DNA of 46,386 nucleotides from a virus (taxonomy: Duplodnaviria; Heunggongvirae; Uroviricota; Caudoviricetes). Under the pieces are notes generated by a model, which did not search any database, had not been told where the DNA came from, and saw only the letters and a list, made by a program, of their open reading frames with translations. Location of the stretch: IMG/VR virus record IMGVR_UViG_2913167280_000002. One strand, given 5' to 3'. Each line of letters opens with the position of its first letter. Within the stretch, counting starts at the first letter, position 1. The translations under genes and the position numbers were made by a program. Of the stretch, positions 94 to 46,386 are shown in pieces.

Positions 94-648
94 ATGCAAT
101 ATGGTTATGCGAGGGTGTCAACTTTTGACCAGAATTTGGAATTACAACTGGAGGCGCTCAGGAGTTCAGGATGTGACCGGATTTTTGAAGATAAAATATC
201 CGGTGCTAAATCAAAACGACCAGGACTTGATAAGCTACTGAAGGTGTTACGACCGGGCGATACGGTTATTGTCTGGAAGCTGGACCGAATGGGGCGTTCT
301 CTGATTCATCTTGTTGATTTACTTAACCATTTTTTATCAAACAACATTGAGTTTATTTCGATTACGGAAGGGATAAAAATTAGCACTTCAATTGGCCGCT
401 TTGCCTACACGATGCTGAGTGCAGTCGCAGAGATGGAGCGGGAAAATATGATTGAAAGAACGCGTGCAGGATTGGCGGTGGCAAGGGCTAACGGCAGGAT
501 AGGAGGACGCCGCTCAAAGCTGGCACCAGAGCAATGGGAACAGATCGGAAGGCTTATTGCGAATGGTGTTTCACGTAAGCGGATAGCGATTATCTTCGAT
601 GTTACCTTATCCACGCTTTACCGCAGGTTTCCGGCTGGGAATCATTGA
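94..648 (+). CDS. serine recombinase, DNA invertase (Gin/Cin/Pin/Hin family)
   Basis: N-terminal YARVSTFDQ catalytic-serine motif, resolvase core, C-terminal HTH; 184 aa; adjacent to crossover site. Confidence 0.9.
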   Translation: MQYGYARVSTFDQNLELQLEALRSSGCDRIFEDKISGAKSKRPGLDKLLKVLRPGDTVIVWKLDRMGRSLIHLVDLLNHFLSNNIEFISITEGIKISTSIGRFAYTMLSAVAEMERENMIERTRAGLAVARANGRIGGRRSKLAPEQWEQIGRLIANGVSRKRIAIIFDVTLSTLYRRFPAGNH

Positions 649-777
649 CTGGAGTTAGGCCAGTAGTATGATGCTCGCAAAACGAGATCCAATTTAGATC
701 CTTTTACTGGTGGATTATCGTTCGATCAGTGAGAGACTTCGTGCATGACCGAAAGTGTTGTGGTAGAGTTCTCTTAA

Positions 778-794: not shown

Positions 795-835
795 ATGATT
801 GTGGGTGTCTGGTTGGAAACTGACCAGATATGGAA

Positions 836-917
836 ACAAAAAGCCCGCAGATAAATCTGCGGGCTTCTTGCGACATCCACGGAAAAACCAACAAAAATAT
901 CCATGGGCGCCTCGACA
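836..917 (-). ncRNA. candidate CopA-like countertranscript antisense to the repA leader
   Basis: Minus-strand intrinsic terminator (stem GCCCGCAG/CTGCGGGC at 842-863 followed by a T-run on the minus strand) and minus-strand promoter-like TTGCGT-N16-TATAAT (-35 at 951-946, -10 at 929-924). Boundaries approximate. Confidence 0.4.
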
Positions 918-961
918 ACTCCCATTATACGTTGGTTTTCCGTGGACGCAAGAGCGAACAT

Positions 962-1810
962 ATGGATAGACCAATGCCGTCTCTACGTTCAGCTTACGTT
1001 TGTAATTTGTCGCCGGAGTTCCAGCCTCCAAAGCACCATACGCACAAGCTGCCGCTGGTGTTATCTGATGCTTTACAGCGCATTAATGGGCGTGATCTTA
1101 CGTGTGAGGTTGCGTTCTACGTTAATCAACCGTCAGAGCGGAAGCGCCGGATAAACGAGCATCGTCGTCGGGCGATTAATGCTGTGATCGCTGCGATTTT
1201 GCACCATGTAAACATCATTTCTAAGCGGGTTCTGGCTAGTGCTGAGGCGTTGGCTGATTTTTGCGGCCTGTCTACCGTATCCGAAGCAGGGAACAAGTCT
1301 ATAACGCGCTGTACAAGGGCGTTGTCGCAACTGAAAGCGTTAGGTTTTATTGATTATGAACGTCGCTGGGATCGGGTGAATAAACAGTATTGGCCAGCGA
1401 AAATAGAGATTCGTGATCAACTGCTGGAAACCGTTGGTATTACTGAACAAGCATGGAGACGTGCGGTTAGCCAGAAACTTAATTACTTCAATGCGAAGAA
1501 TAGCGAACGGCTTAAAAAAGCGATAACGGAGGCTGATTATAAGCGTATTGTTATTCAGGAGCAGATGGAGAATGTATGGCGTCAGAGGAAGACGGCCAGA
1601 GAGATAAAGGCAAAACAGAAAGCAGCGGAGAGAGCTGCGCGTCTTGTTCGGGAAAAGGGAGAGGCCGAACTTCGTCATCAAATCACTAGAGAGGTTAGCC
1701 AGGAATTTGCTGATGGCATGTATCCTGGAGCTGACCTTGCATATTTACGATCCCTCGTTGAGCAGCGTTATAACAGGTTAAGAAAGACCTGGAAATCACT
1801 CCAACATTAA
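962..1810 (+). CDS. repA: plasmid replication initiator RepA (IncFII RepA1 family)
   Basis: Central KSITRCTRAL...LGFIDYE region resembles the R100 RepA1 SITRATRAL...LGLITYQ signature from memory. Start at 962 (MDRPMP) chosen because the 830 start would place the antisense RNA structures inside the coding region; 830 remains possible. Confidence 0.8.
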   Translation: MDRPMPSLRSAYVCNLSPEFQPPKHHTHKLPLVLSDALQRINGRDLTCEVAFYVNQPSERKRRINEHRRRAINAVIAAILHHVNIISKRVLASAEALADFCGLSTVSEAGNKSITRCTRALSQLKALGFIDYERRWDRVNKQYWPAKIEIRDQLLETVGITEQAWRRAVSQKLNYFNAKNSERLKKAITEADYKRIVIQEQMENVWRQRKTAREIKAKQKAAERAARLVREKGEAELRHQITREVSQEFADGMYPGADLAYLRSLVEQRYNRLRKTWKSLQH

Positions 1811-3965: not shown

Positions 3966-4082
3966 TATAGAATTATATAATTATATATTTATATAAAAAG
4001 TGCTTTACAGGTGGGAAAAAATTTCCTATGGTTATACCCGAAACCGAGCGATACCCGCCCTGGTTAAACCGGAGATAACCCG
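3966..4082 (+). promoter_or_regulatory. conserved promoter/leader module, copy A
   Basis: AT-rich octamer array, TTTACA (4004-4009), 17-bp spacer containing the GGAAAAAATTTCC inverted repeat, TATGGT (4027-4032), then a ~45-nt leader ending in GGAG-N8-ATG. Near-identical to copies B and C. Confidence 0.6.
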
Positions 4083-4463
4083 ATGAGCATGATTAAAATC
4101 CGCAAAAACGCTTTCCTTAAAATTCAAACTATCCTGGCTGGTTCTGTTGGCGTGATTTGCCGTTCTTCTTCAAGCCGCATCGATGACGGCTACGATGATG
4201 AGTATCGTGTGTCCTCGTGCGATGAGGCTTTAACCTGGCTGAAGGAGAATCAGGAACGTGCCCAGGTATATCTGGAAACAGAGAACGGCAATCAGATGTT
4301 GCGTATTAGCGGCCGTTATGGATTTGAAACTACATTCATTGCCTATTTTAATCAGGCTTACTTTGACAAGGAGCTGGCCTGGTACACTGATCGCATGATC
4401 AAAAGCGAGCCAGCCCCGATTACACCGCCGAACAATAAACCATTTTTATTCCTCGTTAAGTAA
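4083..4463 (+). CDS. hypothetical protein
   Basis: First gene behind module A; GGAG RBS. Confidence 0.45.
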   Translation: MSMIKIRKNAFLKIQTILAGSVGVICRSSSSRIDDGYDDEYRVSSCDEALTWLKENQERAQVYLETENGNQMLRISGRYGFETTFIAYFNQAYFDKELAWYTDRMIKSEPAPITPPNNKPFLFLVK

Positions 4464-6948: not shown

Positions 6949-7113
6949 TGTGATGATTCCCTTAAAGGTTAAGGATACTCACCACCGTCAGGTTCCAATC
7001 ATTGGGTGGTGAGACGTGCAGGGTTGGAACTACCGGACACAATGACGAACCGGCGAGTCTTACGACTCCCCCGCACGCCCCACCATAATTTGGGTGTAGC
7101 AGTGCTTTACGCA

Positions 7114-7200
7114 TAAAAAAACCGCTAACGCGGTATGCGCCATTGTGTCTACGGGGTTCCAATCCCGGCCGTAGATTTTGCTACGGCTCGGAAAGTGTCC
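7114..7200 (-). ncRNA. candidate small regulatory RNA upstream of the antirepressor operon (c4-like position)
   Basis: Minus-strand terminator (stem ACCGC/GCGGT at 7121-7134 plus T-run); hairpin 7149-7174 whose loop carries GGTTCCAAT; no ORF. Boundaries approximate. Confidence 0.3.
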
Positions 7201-7982: not shown

Positions 7983-8374
7983 GTGCTGATCGGATTCGCG
8001 GTCCTTTCAGCATTACGTTGTTGTATAAACAACCACGCAAGCACAAGCAGCAAGTTGATTTTACCCAAAAGGTAATAATAGTCCACTATTATGCTTCAAA
8101 AAATTGTGGTTCTTGTTGTGTCTGCAAACTCACAGATTGTGGGTAGGTTACTGATTTTGTGAAAATAAACTGGTTTTTTCGTTTAATTTATTTCCTATTA
8201 CTAATCTTAAAATAATCGTAAAATACCTGTGGACCTTCCCGCCGATTCGCACCCGGGCACCGACTTTAGGGGAGGATTTCCTGTTGCCGTACATGCAAGC
8301 ACAAGCAGCCGTGCTTGCTCTCGCGTTGTTTTCGTCGGTGGGGATGCCGTGAAACGGCCTGTAAGGGCCATACA

Positions 8375-8497
8375 ATGAAAAAATACTGTATGTGTATTTT
8401 TATCGTTGTTACTGGGGCTTTGTTTACGCCACATGGGGAGGGTTGGAAGATTACTGATAACGCTCTGAATGTGACGATAAACATTAGCAGCAAGTAG
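8375..8497 (+). CDS. candidate small hydrophobic peptide (40 aa)
   Basis: MKKYCMCIFIVVTGALFTPHG...; AAGGG about 8 nt upstream; ends just before the terminator at 8503. Speculative. Confidence 0.25.
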   Translation: MKKYCMCIFIVVTGALFTPHGEGWKITDNALNVTINISSK

Positions 8498-8502
8498 CGA
8501 TT

Positions 8503-8526
8503 AGGCCCCTTCGGGGGCCTTTTTTA
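8503..8526 (+). terminator. rho-independent terminator
   Basis: Stem AGGCCCC/GGGGCCT, loop TTCG, then TTTTT. Confidence 0.65.
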
Positions 8527-12779: not shown

Positions 12780-13108
12780 GATATACCGGCTTTCGCAAAC
12801 CAGCGACCAGGAAAAGCAAATACGGCAATAAAAAAACTGTTGTCGATGATATCGCTTTTGATAGCAAAAAAGAGGCTGATTACTACTGCGAACTGAAGCT
12901 ACTGAGAAAAGCTGGCCGCGTTGTGACGTTTCTTATGCAGGTGCCTTTTCATCTGCCAGGTGGTGTCGTTTATAAACTTGATTTCATGGTGTTTTATGAC
13001 GATGGGACGATTGATTGTGTCGACACTAAAGGTGTGCGAACAGACGTCTACATCATGAAGAAAAAGCAGGTAGAGGCGCTTTATCCCGTCACGATACGGG
13101 AGATCTGA
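12776..13108 (+). CDS. hypothetical phage protein
   Basis: YGNKKTVVDDIAFDSKKEADYY motif; coupled ORF. Confidence 0.4.
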   Translation: MRYTGFRKPATRKSKYGNKKTVVDDIAFDSKKEADYYCELKLLRKAGRVVTFLMQVPFHLPGGVVYKLDFMVFYDDGTIDCVDTKGVRTDVYIMKKKQVEALYPVTIREI

Positions 13109-13111
13109 ACA

Positions 13112-13489
13112 GTGAGACGCGATCTGGATAGCTTGTTTGAGCTATGGGCGCTGTGGGTGCGCAATGGCTGCAACGCCCGTAGCGGTTTCGCGTCGATGTT
13201 AGAAATGATGATGGTTACGCGTTGCCAGTTTACCGGAGGGGGCGGCGCACCAAATGACTCACTGGAAACCAGTATCGAGGGAGCGGTGACGGCCCTCACG
13301 GTAGTTGATGAGACTGCGGCGCTGGTTGTCCGAATTGAATACGGGGCGTGGGAGATTCGGGGCCTCGACATAAATGCACCGCATATTGATAAAGCCCACG
13401 CCCTTTCTCTTAGTCTCAGACAGTATCGCCGGAAGCTGGCAAAAGCCAGGGCGTATGTTGTCGACTATTTGAAAAAGCGAAGAGAGTAA
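13112..13489 (+). CDS. hypothetical protein
   Basis: GTG start with GGGAG RBS; last gene before module B. Confidence 0.3.
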   Translation: MRRDLDSLFELWALWVRNGCNARSGFASMLEMMMVTRCQFTGGGGAPNDSLETSIEGAVTALTVVDETAALVVRIEYGAWEIRGLDINAPHIDKAHALSLSLRQYRRKLAKARAYVVDYLKKRRE

Positions 13490-13542: not shown

Positions 13543-13658
13543 TCTATAAATATATAATTATATATTTATATAAAAAGTGCTTTACAGGTAGGAAAAAATT
13601 TCCTAAGGTTATACCCGAAACCGAGCGATACCCGCCCTGGTTAAACCGGAGAAATCTG
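13543..13658 (+). promoter_or_regulatory. conserved promoter/leader module, copy B
   Basis: Near-identical to copy A, with differences in the -10 (TAAGGT), the spacer and the last 7 nt. Coordinates approximate to within 1 nt. Confidence 0.6.
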
Positions 13659-14726
13659 ATGAATAAACAAGTAATTATTTCTGACTGGATCAACAACCCT
13701 AACAGCCTGTTAAGCACTGATACTGGCTACCTATTACGCCATGTTAATGGTCGTATGGTCAAAAGCGATGAGCACGAAACCTTTTTCTTTGTTGAAGACG
13801 ATGGGCGCATCTATGAGGATGGTTACTCTTATGAAGCCCAAACTGGTTGTATCCCTGCGGAGCTGGTGGACGTAACAGAAGATCTGCGCAAAGCATGGCT
13901 TGAACAGCAGCAGCGCGGAGATGATTACGTAAACACCTATCAGGAACGCCAGAACGCGCGTCTTGCCCGATATATTGCTCGTGCAGAAAAAGCCAGAAAA
14001 GAAGGTGCGGTAGCGCATAAGCGAGCGCATGACCTGTTGGATGTGATCCCGTTAGGCCAGCCGATTTTAGTTGACCATTATAGCGCGAAAGGCCATCGCC
14101 GCCGTTTGTCTAAAGCTGATGCGTTATTCAGAAAAGCGTTTGTTGAATGCGAAAGTAAAGCATCACACTACGAGAGCAAAGCCGCAGGTGTTGGTCGTAA
14201 TGGAATTTCGTCTGATGATCCTGATGCGCTATTTAAGTTGCTTCGTAAGCTGCAAGGCTGCATGAAGTCACACGTCAAAATGAAGGCCGCAAATAAGGCC
14301 ATTCGCAAATACAAAAAAGACCAATTACAGCAGCTTTCTGCATTAATCGATCTCAGGTTTACAGAAAGCGAAGCCAAAGAGTTACTGGCCGGAGATTTCT
14401 GTGGGCGCATCGGATTCCCTTCATACGCACTGAGCAACAATAACGCCGAAATCAAACGACTACAGAGCCGTATTAAGGAGCTTGAATCGGTCAAGTCTGT
14501 AACAGGAGCACAGCGCGAAGAATACGACGGCTTTTCTATGGAGATAGATCCAGAGGATAACCGCATCCTGTTTTATTTCCCTGGCAAACCAGAGGCAAAC
14601 ATTCGTTCGCTGCTTAAATCACGCGCCTTTAAGTGGAGTCCAACCCGTAATGCATGGGTTCGCAAGATTACTCCAAACGCCCTGGCTGATGCCCGATATC
14701 TGAAAGAATCGCTATTGAAAGCCTGA
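13659..14726 (+). CDS. hypothetical protein (355 aa)
   Basis: First gene behind module B; GGAG RBS. Confidence 0.5.
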   Translation: MNKQVIISDWINNPNSLLSTDTGYLLRHVNGRMVKSDEHETFFFVEDDGRIYEDGYSYEAQTGCIPAELVDVTEDLRKAWLEQQQRGDDYVNTYQERQNARLARYIARAEKARKEGAVAHKRAHDLLDVIPLGQPILVDHYSAKGHRRRLSKADALFRKAFVECESKASHYESKAAGVGRNGISSDDPDALFKLLRKLQGCMKSHVKMKAANKAIRKYKKDQLQQLSALIDLRFTESEAKELLAGDFCGRIGFPSYALSNNNAEIKRLQSRIKELESVKSVTGAQREEYDGFSMEIDPEDNRILFYFPGKPEANIRSLLKSRAFKWSPTRNAWVRKITPNALADARYLKESLLKA

Positions 14727-19936: not shown

Positions 19937-20012
19937 GGCCCCTTAGCTCAGTGGTTAGAGCAGGCGACTCATAATCGCACGGTCATCGGTTCAAGTCCGG
20001 TAGGGGCCACCA
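19937..20012 (+). tRNA. tRNA with CAU anticodon (Met or lysidine-modified Ile)
   Basis: 76 nt; 7-bp acceptor stem, D-arm GCTC/GAGC, anticodon loop CTCATAA, T-loop TTCAAGT, encoded CCA; one G-A mismatch at the top of the anticodon stem. Confidence 0.75.
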
Positions 20013-20315: not shown

Positions 20316-20903
20316 ATGGAGGCAATTGCATTGTTTAATCTGATTTATGCAGATCCCCCCTGGGAATACAAAGACAAGTGTAAGGATGGGAATCGTGGCG
20401 CTGGTTTTAAGTATCCAACGATGAAAGCTGAGGAGATTGCTCGTATTCCTGTCTGGCAGCTTGCTAATCCTGAATCGTGTTTGTTGGCCATGTGGTGGGT
20501 TCCGACTCAGCCAGAAGAAGCGTTGCTGGTGGTGAAAGCATGGGGATTCAGGCTTATGACCATGAAGGGCTTCACATGGAACAAATGTGGTAGCCGACAA
20601 CCAGATAAGCTGGTGATGGGAATGGGGCATATGACTCGTGCAAACAGTGAAGATTGCTTGTTTGCAGTGAAAGGCAAACTACCGACACGTCTTGATGCGG
20701 GGATCATTCAGTCGTTTACATCGCCTCGTCTGGAGCATTCTCGGAAGCCTGATGTGGTCCGTGACAAGCTGGTAAAGCTGTTAGGCGATGTTCCTCGTAT
20801 TGAGCTGTTTGCTCGCGGTGATTTACCTGATGGCTGGCATGGCTGGGGCAACCAGTGCAACGGAGGTATCCAGTTGCATGATGCTCTCTGGCAAGTGTCA
20901 TAG
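20316..20903 (+). CDS. MT-A70-family DNA N6-adenine methyltransferase
   Basis: DPPW catalytic motif in LIYADPPWEY near the N-terminus; 195 aa. Confidence 0.7.
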   Translation: MEAIALFNLIYADPPWEYKDKCKDGNRGAGFKYPTMKAEEIARIPVWQLANPESCLLAMWWVPTQPEEALLVVKAWGFRLMTMKGFTWNKCGSRQPDKLVMGMGHMTRANSEDCLFAVKGKLPTRLDAGIIQSFTSPRLEHSRKPDVVRDKLVKLLGDVPRIELFARGDLPDGWHGWGNQCNGGIQLHDALWQVS

Positions 20904-21015
20904 AATTATATAATTATAGATTTATATAAAAAGTGCTTTACAGGTGGGAAAAAATTTCCTATGGTTATACCCGAAACCGAGCGATACCCGCCCTGGTTAA
21001 ACCGGAGATAACCCG
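20899..21015 (+). promoter_or_regulatory. conserved promoter/leader module, copy C
   Basis: Identical to copy A from the -35 region to the ATG, one substitution in the AT-rich box; TTTACA at 20937-20942. Confidence 0.6.
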
Positions 21016-21285
21016 ATGAAAGTACAAGACCGTGAAGTAGTAAAAAACCTCCTGCAATACCTGACCTCAAAAAACCTGACGGGCAGCGTTGAGTTCCGTG
21101 AAGCGTTAAAACATTTCAACGTCACTACGGTTTATCGTTGGGAAAACAAACATTCTGAAAGACCGTATGTGGTGGATGTTTTTGCGCCTGATATTGAGTG
21201 CGGTTTTGAGCGTCATTCGTTCAAGGAGAAACATTCCGCTGATGTTTTTTGTGAGGTTGTATGTGCGGCAGGAGATGATGAGTGA
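21016..21285 (+). CDS. hypothetical protein
   Basis: First gene behind module C. Confidence 0.4.
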   Translation: MKVQDREVVKNLLQYLTSKNLTGSVEFREALKHFNVTTVYRWENKHSERPYVVDVFAPDIECGFERHSFKEKHSADVFCEVVCAAGDDE

Positions 21286-45055: not shown

Positions 45056-46386
45056 GTGAGTAAATTATTATTTACGATGACTGACGCCGGGCGTCAGGAG
45101 TTGGTTAATGCCAACAAAACAGGAACAAATAAAGTTGAGATTGTTTCTGTTGGTTTAGGTAGTAGATATTATGTCACGTCAACCTCACAAACAAATATAA
45201 CAGACGAAATAAAACGACTTACCACAATAGGTGGCAAAGTTGTTTCCCCTGATACAATTCATGTAACGGCGAAGGATGATAGTAAAGATGAGTATGTTGT
45301 CCATACAATAGGATTGTATACAAATAAGGGAACGTTGTTTGCTGTATACTCGCAAGAACAAGCAATAATAAATAAAGCATCATCTACTATTGCTTTAATA
45401 TCAAGTGACATAGCAATCAAGACTCTTGATACTAAAAATATTACATTTGGTGATATTGAGTTTATTAATCCTCCCGCAACCGAAACTGTTGTTGGGGTAG
45501 CAAGATTTGCCAATGAACAAGAAATTGATGCAGGTACAGATGATTCCCTTGCTGTTTCAGCAAAGCGGCTTAAGCAAGCCATTGTGAAACATGAGCAATC
45601 ACGTAATCATCCCGATGCTACTTTAACCTCAAAAGGCTTTGTTCAACTTAGCAGCGCCACCAATAGCTCGTCTGAAACGCTTGCTGCGACGCCTAAGGCT
45701 GTTAAGGCAGCATATGACCTTGCTAACGCTAAATACACCGCACAGGACGCTACCACGGCGCGAAAAGGGATTGTTCAGCTCAGTAGCGCAACTAACAGCG
45801 ATTCTGAAACGCTTGCTGCGACGCCTAAGGCTGTTAAGGCAGCATATGACCTTGCTAACGCTAAATACACCGCACAGGACGCTACCACAGCGAAAAAAGG
45901 GATTGTTCAGCTCAGTAGCGCCACCAACAGCACGTCTGAAACGCTGGCTGCGACACCAAAAGCTGTTAAGGCGGTAATGGATGAAACGAACAAGAAAGCG
46001 CCCTTAAACAGTCCTGCGCTGACCGGAACACCAACAACACCAACTGCGCCAAAAGGTACTAACAATACTCAGATCGCAAGCACGGCTTATGTTATGGCTG
46101 CGATCGCTGCCCTCGTGGATTCGTCGCCTGATGCACTGAATACGCTGAACGAGCTGGCGGCTGCGTTGGGCAACGACCCGAATTTTGCGACCACCATGAC
46201 TAACGCGCTTGCGGGTAAGCAACCTAAGGATGCCACCCTGACGGCGCTGGCTGGGCTTGCTACTGCGGCAGACAGGTTTCCGTATTTTACGGGGAATGAT
46301 GTCGCCAGCCTGGCAACTCTGACAAAAGTCGGGCGGGATATTCTTGCGAAATCGACCGTTGCCGCCGTTATCGAATACCTCGGTTT
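45056..46386 (+). CDS. tail fibre protein, constant N-terminal part (P2 gpH / Mu S-like), 3' end truncated by the window
   Basis: GTG start after AAGGA; N-terminus P2 H-like; ...ASLATLTKVGRDILAKSTVAAVIEYLG conserved junction reaches the window end with no stop. Not in the ORF track (no stop; GTG start). Confidence 0.8.
   Translation, partial: MSKLLFTMTDAGRQELVNANKTGTNKVEIVSVGLGSRYYVTSTSQTNITDEIKRLTTIGGKVVSPDTIHVTAKDDSKDEYVVHTIGLYTNKGTLFAVYSQEQAIINKASSTIALISSDIAIKTLDTKNITFGDIEFINPPATETVVGVARFANEQEIDAGTDDSLAVSAKRLKQAIVKHEQSRNHPDATLTSKGFVQLSSATNSSSETLAATPKAVKAAYDLANAKYTAQDATTARKGIVQLSSATNSDSETLAATPKAVKAAYDLANAKYTAQDATTAKKGIVQLSSATNSTSETLAATPKAVKAVMDETNKKAPLNSPALTGTPTTPTAPKGTNNTQIASTAYVMAAIAALVDSSPDALNTLNELAAALGNDPNFATTMTNALAGKQPKDATLTALAGLATAADRFPYFTGNDVASLATLTKVGRDILAKSTVAAVIEYLG
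45636..45980 (+). repeat. tandem ~120-bp (40-aa) coding repeats in the tail fibre gene
   Basis: About 2.7 copies of KGIVQLSSATNS.SETLAATPKAVKAAYDLANAKYTAQDATTA; in frame and protein-coding. Confidence 0.8.
46368..46386. promoter_or_regulatory. Gin/Cin-type crossover site, truncated at the window end
   Basis: TTATCGAATACCTCGGTTT is the inverted counterpart of the left-end site core AAACCGAGG; 19 of about 26 bp present. Confidence 0.7.

Follow-up and report, generated by a model that had tools for sequence, protein, structure and literature searches.

Antisense control of the replicons of the IncFII superfamily is textbook knowledge, and an antisense RNA in the leader described below is therefore expected rather than surprising. 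The CopA RNA of plasmids R1 and R100 (Rfam family RF00042) is a constitutive countertranscript of ~85-90 nt with two hairpins, in which the 3' stem-loop is the terminator and the major recognition loop (CGCCAA motif) is carried by the long bulged 3' hairpin. The known systems of the I complex and of IncL/M use a pseudoknot of 4-8 nt between a loop and a distal sequence. That antisense RNAs control the translation of rep, among other ways by competing with an activating long-range interaction, is established for IncFII, IncI1 and IncB/O (PMC8053102, PMC10724649), and IncL and IncM are also counted among the replicons controlled by antisense RNA (PMC10724649). In the IncI2 plasmid pHNSHP45, an antisense RNA of ~100 nt encoded in the repA leader represses RepA, and no IncI1-like pseudoknot was found (PMC8053102). 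Here, we describe the repA leader of IMG/VR virus record IMGVR_UViG_2913167280_000002, a caudoviricete DNA of 46,386 nt (this whole stretch is referred to as the window, and coordinates are those of the window unless stated otherwise). The element, ~47 kb in size, is both a phage and a non-mobilizable plasmid.

We consider it probable, though well short of certain, that the minus strand of 835-918 is the gene for a constitutive countertranscript RNA (ctRNA) of ~83 nt, which would act as a negative regulator of copy number, and probably as an incompatibility determinant, by causing the repA leader to refold. The coordinates of the features discussed are given in Table 1. The comparison was based on 35 homologous loci from plasmids, viral contigs and metagenomes (cited by locus number, e.g. 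L001), which provided 12 distinct versions of the segment 826-989.

Table 1. Features of the repA leader and of the predicted countertranscript in the window.
Feature	Position	Strand	Remarks
Candidate repA mRNA promoter	645..672	+	TTGACT, 16-nt spacer, TATGAT; 10/12 consensus match in a consensus scan
Predicted ctRNA	835..918	-	~82-84 nt; predicted 5' end 916-919, predicted 3' end in the U-run 833-840
ctRNA stem-loop II, intrinsic terminator	836..871	-	Core stem 841-850/857-866, then UUUUUGUUU
Outer leader helix, 5' half	867..872	+	CUUGCG, pairs with CGCAAG at 947-952, including part of AAGAG; invariant in the clade
ctRNA stem-loop I	872..911	-	Stems 900-906/877-883 and 908-911/872-875; apical loop 884-899
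5' arm of long-range leader helix	877..892	+	CCACGGAAAAACCAAC; inside the ctRNA target
Hypervariable stretch	881..902		12 alleles of 17-26 nt in the 35 loci; proposed specificity (incompatibility) determinant
-10 hexamer of ctRNA promoter	924..929	-	TATAAT, perfect
Predicted alternative hairpin	930..976	+	930-944 pairs with 961-976 when the 5' arm is occupied; AAGA (950-953) in a small apical loop
3' arm of long-range leader helix	931..945	+	GUUGGUUUUCCGUGG; alternative partner is the repA start region; also the ctRNA promoter spacer
-35 hexamer of ctRNA promoter	946..951	-	TTGCGT, matching TTGACA at 3/6 positions; overlaps the 3' half of the outer leader helix
Shine-Dalgarno-like AAGAG	950..954	+	7 nt upstream of ATG 962; kept as AAGAG or AAGGG
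repA	962..1810	+	Conserved start ATG 974 (MPSLRS...); ATG 962 in frame four codons upstream, E. coli type only

An earlier inspection of the window (the original prediction) had proposed a minus-strand intrinsic terminator and a near-consensus minus-strand promoter within the leader. The terminator is present. Its core stem is formed by AAGCCCGCAG and CUGCGGGCUU, is followed by a U-run and extends on the minus strand to 16 bp over 836-871, 81 nt downstream of the promoter. With -22.2 kcal/mol, the hairpin is the strongest of the 11 hairpin-plus-T-tail sites found on both strands of the whole window. The promoter is also there, with a perfect -10 hexamer and a 16-nt spacer (951-946 to 929-924), but "near-consensus" was an overstatement, since the -35 hexamer agrees at only half of its positions. 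The window holds 35 perfect TATAAT sequences on its two strands, two of which have TTG at -35, and one lies 50-150 nt upstream of a strong terminator; 924-951 and 836-871 are the sole promoter-terminator pair of its kind in the 46 kb. The promoter hexamers, the RNA start region and the terminator are invariant in all 12 distinct variants, apart from a compensatory change in the terminator stem of L011 (849/858, A-U to G-C). Across this clade and a second, more distant one (described below), 5 of the 15 terminator pairs were found to be compensatory (MAFFT alignment with RNAalifold). On the plus strand neither hairpin is followed by a U-run, and a plus-strand terminator or attenuator was rejected.

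The predicted ctRNA folds into two adjacent hairpins (ΔG -41.1 kcal/mol, z = -7.0, with none of 200 shuffled sequences as good), and the same shape was obtained for seven variant types and three second-clade sequences, with ΔG of -38.9 to -41.3 kcal/mol. The pairing of stem-loop I is kept in L002 by a G-C to A-U double change, and in L003 and L011 by G-U pairs, whose plus-strand counterparts would be A-C mismatches. The hypervariable stretch is at once the apical loop of this stem-loop and the unpaired A-rich segment of the leader. Its alleles differ in length by numbers that are not multiples of three; the common allele is CAACAACAACAAT, and the window carries another one. Variability was measured as pairwise differences per site in 30-nt bins over 640-1839. 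Bins 850-879 and 910-939 were the most conserved (0.007 and 0.016, compared to 0.06-0.17 inside the repA coding sequence), while the bin between them, 880-909, varied more than any other inside the replicon (0.232 when all sequences are included). In the E. coli type alone this bin reached 0.162, about ten times the background, against at most 0.037 in any other bin of 640-1839, and over the 164 nt compared the differences among the nine E. coli-type versions are confined to the hypervariable stretch. An antisense specificity determinant would be expected to show just this combination of a hypervariable loop and hyperconserved flanks (PMC10724649), and because single loop changes alter compatibility in IncK (PMC10724649), the 12 alleles may be read as specificity variants. 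A peptide encoded by the ctRNA (minus-strand open reading frame [ORF] 793-918) was rejected, as this ORF crosses both the terminator and the hypervariable stretch with its frame-breaking length differences. The proposal of a countertranscript of ~80 nt antisense to a non-coding repA leader therefore gains support from the invariant signals, the compensatory terminator changes, the G-U pairs specific to the minus strand and the variability hotspot in the loop.

RefSeq (PGAP) places the start of repA at ATG 830, within this region, giving a protein of 326 aa in L001 (3181-4161) and in five further E. coli-type records. A protein cluster of 525 members has this 326-aa form as its representative, and the extended RepA has thus been widely propagated; the ORF is indeed open from 830 in the window. 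It is nevertheless scarcely credible that the region is the N-terminal part of RepA and the structures in it incidental. The loop alleles would break the frame, which upstream of 962 is shifted in L008 and interrupted by stop codons in L002, L003 and L011. The Pfam IncFII_repA domain begins at residue 53 of the 830-ORF and the NCBIfam model NF040977 at residue 14 of the protein starting at 962, i.e. both after 974, and the Salmonella homologues are annotated in RefSeq from the ATG equivalent to 974. Because relatives carry stop codons and indels that are not multiples of three upstream of 962, it can be concluded from the sequence comparison that this region is non-coding and that the RefSeq start at 830 is wrong. 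The frame breaks, the domain boundaries and the Salmonella annotation together identify ATG 974 as the conserved RepA start. A start at 830, with which the original prediction would have been abandoned, was thus examined and fails.

The long inverted repeat reported in the leader is real: it comprises 877-892 and 931-945 (15 bp and one bulged A) and is extended by the outer helix 867-872/947-952. The leader strand folds far better than its shuffled versions (z = -7.6), and the inverted repeat dominates this fold. The long-range helix covaries, with 881/941 changed from G-C to A-U in three variants and 886-887/936 from A-U to U-A; a further change, 880/942 from C-G to U-G in L003, preserves pairing on the plus strand only. 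Counting the terminator pair 849/858, three pairs change on both sides within the clade, a number reached in 2 of 500 shuffles. The ctRNA is complementary to 836-917, so that it covers the 5' arm of the helix and excludes the 3' arm. Its segment complementary to the 5' arm, GUUGGUUUUUCCGUGG, has the sequence of the 3' arm plus one extra U, and the two therefore compete for one site, the 5' arm.

The predicted alternative partner of the 3' arm is the start region of repA. The resulting hairpin (ΔG -19.7 kcal/mol, z -2.7) base-pairs both AUG 962-964 and AUG 974-976, and its shape recurs in the Salmonella types L002 and L003 and in L011 (ΔG -15.6 to -19.2 kcal/mol; four types tested). On the start side, the substituted forms CCAAUG, CCAGCG and UCAAC all still pair with an invariant CGUUGG. 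The duplex of the two arms (-20.2 to -29.6 kcal/mol) is stronger than that of the 3' arm with the start region (-11.6 to -17.3 kcal/mol). When the part covered by the ctRNA was blocked in a constrained ensemble, the unpaired probability fell from 0.95 to 0.31 for AUG 974 and from 0.55 to 0.26 for the -12..+3 region, and that of the first AUG fell to 0.01 in the Salmonella and L011 types. With the ctRNA region blocked in the second clade, the Shine-Dalgarno zone went from 0.33-0.52 to 0.12-0.13.

From these features we infer that the RNA is made, that it acts negatively, where it would make contact and how the leader would refold. In the free leader, the 5' arm together with 867-872 would pair with the 3' arm together with 947-952, leaving the repA start codons single-stranded, so that RepA would be translated. 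When the free leader is folded, the A-rich hypervariable segment stays unpaired at the apex of the long hairpin, which makes it a natural first contact for the ctRNA. The loop of stem-loop I would thus touch this segment (~893-902), and the duplex would then spread over 836-917 and displace the 3' arm. The freed 3' arm would fold onto 961-976 and bury AUG 962 and AUG 974, and RepA synthesis would fall. More plasmid copies would produce more ctRNA and less RepA, i.e. a negative feedback. The role of the inverted repeat points to the competition logic of the IncI, IncB and IncL/M replicons, which is known from IncI1 and IncB/O (PMC8053102), rather than to that of plasmid R1.

A protein search identified RepA relatives at 60-63% identity, among which a second clade was recognized. 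The loci L041, L042 and L044 (RepA 60%) have the layout of the window with arms that are almost entirely different in sequence (UUGUCAGCCAGGUAGCCACAC and GUGUGGCCCUGGCUGACAA), a diverged terminator stem and, in the place of the outer helix, a different 8-bp helix (UGCGGUUC/GAAUCGCA). Common to both clades is the block GCCTCGACAACTCCNATTATA, which carries the minus-strand -10 hexamer and the predicted 5' end of the RNA. In the second clade the -10 TATAAT is unchanged and the -35 is TTGCAT with an 18-nt spacer; variation among its three sequences is found at the apex of stem-loop I. A covariance model (model R1) was built only from the clade of the window. It describes, in this order and upstream of a RepA_IncFII_LM gene, the terminator hairpin, the outer helix, the long inner helix and an apical hairpin containing the minus-strand -10. 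The model scores 146.6 bits on 834-959 of the window and 130-158 bits on the 12 loci of its own clade that were searched, and it recovers the second clade at full length with 40-44 bits (E ~1e-9). No match was obtained with L038, L039 and L040, loci of the CopA or PK-repBA type. In the combined alignment of both clades 97.4% of the cells are paired, and 15 of the 36 pairs change on both sides (11 of 14 in the inner helix), which none of 500 shuffles reached, slid controls giving 1-4. An alignment with MAFFT and RNAalifold across the clades recovered the terminator only, because the arms cannot be aligned by sequence. A PLSDB search with the second-clade module gave no match.

Not all RepA proteins at this distance are preceded by the same module. 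In L040 (RepA 63%), positions 1360-1510 show the classical layout of the I complex and IncL/M, with a single hairpin bearing a TTGGCG loop and a leader peptide of 15 aa. A similar layout, also with TTGGCG, is found in L038 (RepA 37%), in which the element is detected by the Rfam PK-repBA model. As RepA proteins at 60-63% carry two kinds of module, one PK-repBA-like (L040) and the other the new one (L044, 1173-1302), control modules and initiators seem, judging from these sequences, to have been exchanged between RepA lineages. The gene that the module would control in the second clade is an additional ORF of 63-162 aa (L041, 1016-1504; L042 and L043, 1028-1504; L044, 1323-1514, the 63-aa version), the end of which overlaps the repA ATG. 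The product of 158-162 aa in L041 and L042 is paralogous to the N-terminal half of RepA but has diverged from it (28% identity, E 2e-10). The ATG next to the Shine-Dalgarno-like sequence, i.e. ATG 962 in the window, is homologous to the start of this ORF, and the window's ATG 962 (MDRP) appears from its sequence to be a relic of it.

The original prediction had likened the arrangement to copy-number control in IncFII. In part this holds, since the ctRNA would work like CopA: a constitutive two-hairpin countertranscript with a terminator as its 3' stem-loop, its gene lying in the leader of an initiator of the Pfam IncFII_repA family and fully complementary to it, expected to lower RepA translation and to set incompatibility through its loop sequence. 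The identification with the IncFII system itself does not hold. Rfam RF00042 gave no match in 600-1200 at E ≤ 10, nor in the whole window at the gathering score, while it scored 99.1 bits on a true IncFII plasmid, pO157 (L039), and 36.9 bits on the distant relative L038. Equally, RF01089 (PK-repBA) had no match in 600-1200 at E ≤ 10, while L038 scored 56.7 bits against a gathering score of 45. The search of 600-1200 returned only sub-threshold matches to attenuators and terminators, due to the generic shape of a hairpin followed by a terminator. RepA itself belongs to NCBIfam NF040977, RepA_IncFII_LM (232.2 bits, cutoff 70), and falls outside the incFII_RepA equivalog TIGR03474 (79.2 bits, cutoff 446.9); in tblastn it is 31-41% identical to IncFII RepA over 30-45% of the protein. 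In contrast to CopA, it is the 5' hairpin that carries a large variable loop here, and the terminator hairpin is perfect with an invariant loop of 4-6 nt. The window also lacks the 24-aa Tap ORF: there is no short ORF that is conserved, possesses a start codon and terminates at the repA start, whereas tap is annotated in the control L039. A Tap-like ORF ending at TAG 967-969 was considered and rejected, as its frame (PWAPRQ...) has no start codon downstream of the hypervariable stretch; that this frame ends elsewhere or merges into RepA in other types also counts against it. Nor was a counterpart of CopB found: between the invertase gene (94-648) and repA there are only small non-conserved ORFs, of which 729-854, as read from the alignment, is truncated in the Salmonella type, while L039 has a regulatory gene. 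The R1 mode of control is likewise not favoured.

The likeness is closer to the replicons IncI-alpha (ColIb-P9), IncB/O/K/Z and IncL/M. Their RepA also belongs to NF040977, the antisense target also pairs over a long range with a sequence immediately 5' of the ribosome-binding site of rep, and this distal sequence mimics the antisense RNA and can alternatively form a hairpin that hides the ribosome-binding site. The differences are that a helix of 15 bp (21 bp with the outer helix) here takes the place of the local target hairpin, that two hairpins are present instead of one, that the UUGGCG/CGCCAA loop motif occurs in none of the 12 loop alleles, and that the window has no short leader peptide of the repB/repY kind. 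The IncI2 system shares the antisense RNA in the repA leader but depends on a 19-aa leader peptide, RepR, overlapping the repA start, and on PcnR, a protein of the ProQ/FinO family; these were sought here only by a survey of ORFs, which revealed no conserved short leader ORF.

Several observations weigh against the refolding model. The consensus scan listed neither the ctRNA promoter nor its terminator, and the -35 hexamer is weak; in our own reading of the sequence, as opposed to a program result, the terminator was missed because the extension of the stem uses up the T-run. The Shine-Dalgarno-like AAGAG is paired in the free leader (unpaired probability 0.06-0.28) and opens to 0.6-0.8 when the ctRNA-covered part is blocked, which, taken alone, points in the opposite direction to repression. 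Once 60 nt of downstream sequence are added, the blocked window has a minimum free energy structure other than the simple alternative hairpin. Translation may be initiated at 962 or at 974, of which 962 shares the RepA frame in the E. coli type alone. Because of the (CAA)n within the loop hotspot, slippage adds to its variability besides any selection. The covariation rests on few independent lineages (approximately five), and since the cross-clade alignment was fitted to the model, the count of 15 in 36 pairs leans towards the structure.

The alternatives to be weighed differ in what the ctRNA would do, or in whether it exists. If control followed plasmid R1, the ctRNA would be real and would act mainly on a leader ORF, by blocking the translation on which opening of the repA ribosome-binding site depends, and the long helix would be secondary. 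Leader-peptide coupling of this kind is established for R1, IncI1, IncB and IncI2 (PMC8053102), and it could start here from ATG 903 (MGASTTPIIRW..., in the ctRNA-covered region) or from the Shine-Dalgarno-proximal ATG (960-962). ATG 903 is conserved and opens an ORF in every variant, and three of the four substitutions found between 903 and 960 are silent in its frame, a pattern that covariation of the helix explains equally well; it has no Shine-Dalgarno sequence, however, and is base-paired in both conformations of the leader, and its ORF has 32, 66 or 83 codons depending on the type, with no conservation after codon 20. The frame opened by the Shine-Dalgarno-proximal ATG is not that of RepA in the Salmonella and L011 types, where it runs for 47 or 13 codons and overlaps the repA start, and the overlap of the second-clade ORF with the repA ATG is a classic coupling layout. 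In the window, a 2-nt difference fuses ATG 962 in frame to RepA, so that there is no separate leader peptide. The second-clade ORF and the out-of-frame ATGs therefore keep translational coupling alive for the relatives, not for the window, for which we regard it as unlikely.

A real ctRNA might instead act mainly through RNase III cleavage of the ~80-bp duplex and subsequent decay, or through collision between convergent promoters, and this we consider improbable to a greater degree. Complementarity is complete over ~83 nt, the promoters do converge (645-672 on the plus strand, 951-924 on the minus strand) and RNase III cleaves the CopA-CopT duplexes of R1; this cleavage is, however, dispensable for control in R1, and a conserved, covarying helix of 15-21 bp and a start-codon hairpin present in two clades would be left unexplained. 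Very improbable, in our judgement, is that no antisense RNA exists and that the conserved elements are only cis-acting leader structures, serving stability, processing or protein binding, with TATAAT and the U-run as by-products. The poor -35 and the failure of the scans to list either signal would suit this, as would the fact that most of the covariation concerns plus-strand helices, and a palindromic mRNA hairpin preceded by an A-run would mimic a terminator on the other strand. Against it, the polarity of the A-run and U-run is such that only on the minus strand is the hairpin a terminator (the plus strand continues with CUUGCG), and stem-loop I is held by G-U pairs that exist on that strand alone. 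The -10 and a TTGCNT -35 at 16-18 nt are kept in two clades despite wholly different arms, no second promoter-terminator pair like it occurs in the window, and the hypervariable loop within hyperconserved flanks fits an antisense specificity determinant (PMC10724649). The refolding of the leader by the ctRNA is thus the reading we prefer.

The repA region was found in 71 of 5,426 complete E. coli genomes, including ATCC 25922, always plasmid-borne and in one copy each; two alleles residing in the same genome were not seen among these 71 records from 71 genomes. In ATCC 25922, a quality-control strain, the locus of the predicted ctRNA lies in region 12879-13249 of plasmid NZ_CP009073.1. PLSDB contains the repA region in 59 plasmids (Escherichia, Klebsiella) at >95% identity and in three Salmonella plasmids at 75-77%. 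Yersinia phages vB_YpM_39/41/44 and two Escherichia phage records have RepA and/or the lambda-like head genes in common with the window. MOB-suite leaves the replicon of this phage-plasmid group untyped, and none of the papers found in the literature searches describes its control. An initial assignment to a pSLy3 group was dropped, as pSLy3 belongs to the SSU5 supergroup. A protein scan of genome contigs gave no match, and two contigs of Jiangellaceae metagenome-assembled genomes, hit in a 20-mer scan, were rejected as chance matches because they have no further similarity to the window.

The candidate repA promoter, both hexamers of which are kept in Salmonella-type relatives, is located where the DNA-invertase gene upstream has its stop codon; a transcript from it would have a leader of ~280-295 nt. 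The invertase gene, of the Hin/Pin type (94-648), ends exactly at the -35 hexamer (645-650). In some relatives (e.g. L001) a different gene is found upstream of the -35, so a tail-fibre segment that is variable or invertible has its boundary beside the replicon. The 5' part of the leader contains a conserved small hairpin (CCACG-UAA-CGUGG, 780-792), whose stem is kept and whose loop differs in the Salmonella and L011 types, and strong structure is predicted throughout 680-835. Just 3' of repA, the AT-rich non-coding stretch 1811-2060, with a perfect DnaA box TTATCCACA at 1952-1960, occupies the expected place of an IncFII-type origin.

Elsewhere in the window, Rfam matches above the gathering score comprise a C4 antisense RNA (7002-7090, minus strand) and the adjacent isrK (7115-7187, minus strand), a pair that represents a P1/P7-type immunity and antirepressor control region, as well as ryfA RNA (8229-8525, plus strand) and tRNA-Met (19937-20012, plus strand). 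A cassette of 120 nt is present in three dispersed direct copies (3967-4086, 13544-13663 and 20900-21019; 89-99% identical), each with an AT-rich palindromic block, a promoter-like TTTACA-N17-TATGGT, a conserved 5' untranslated region and GGAGA-N7-ATG, and three operons thus seem to share one promoter, operator and leader. A 132-nt unit is repeated in tandem, in three copies, close to the end of the window (45631-46026; 100, 89 and 67% identity to the reference copy), in the region where relatives carry tail-fibre genes.

What is new is a distinct module, unmatched by any Rfam family, on a widespread phage-plasmid known from E. coli and from Yersinia and Escherichia phage isolates. In it, the pseudoknot-type activator is replaced by a long helix. 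The comparison also corrects the annotated RepA start of the six E. coli-type RefSeq records. More tentatively, and with rather less confidence than we place in the ctRNA, the module may be the founding member of an uncatalogued family of replication-control RNAs for RepA_IncFII_LM initiators. In this family, the pseudoknot and leader peptide would be replaced by a three-way switch between the 5' arm (anti-sequestor), the 3' arm (sequestor) and the start codons, driven by a two-hairpin ctRNA whose loop would be under diversifying selection and would sort these near-identical phage-plasmids into compatibility types. The 12 natural loop alleles form a series for studying how loop sequence sets antisense specificity. 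The module could account for the copy-number control and the incompatibility of a group of phage-plasmids that replicon typing has passed over and, if this explanation is correct, the compatibility types of the loop would decide which related phage-plasmids can reside together in a cell after infection.

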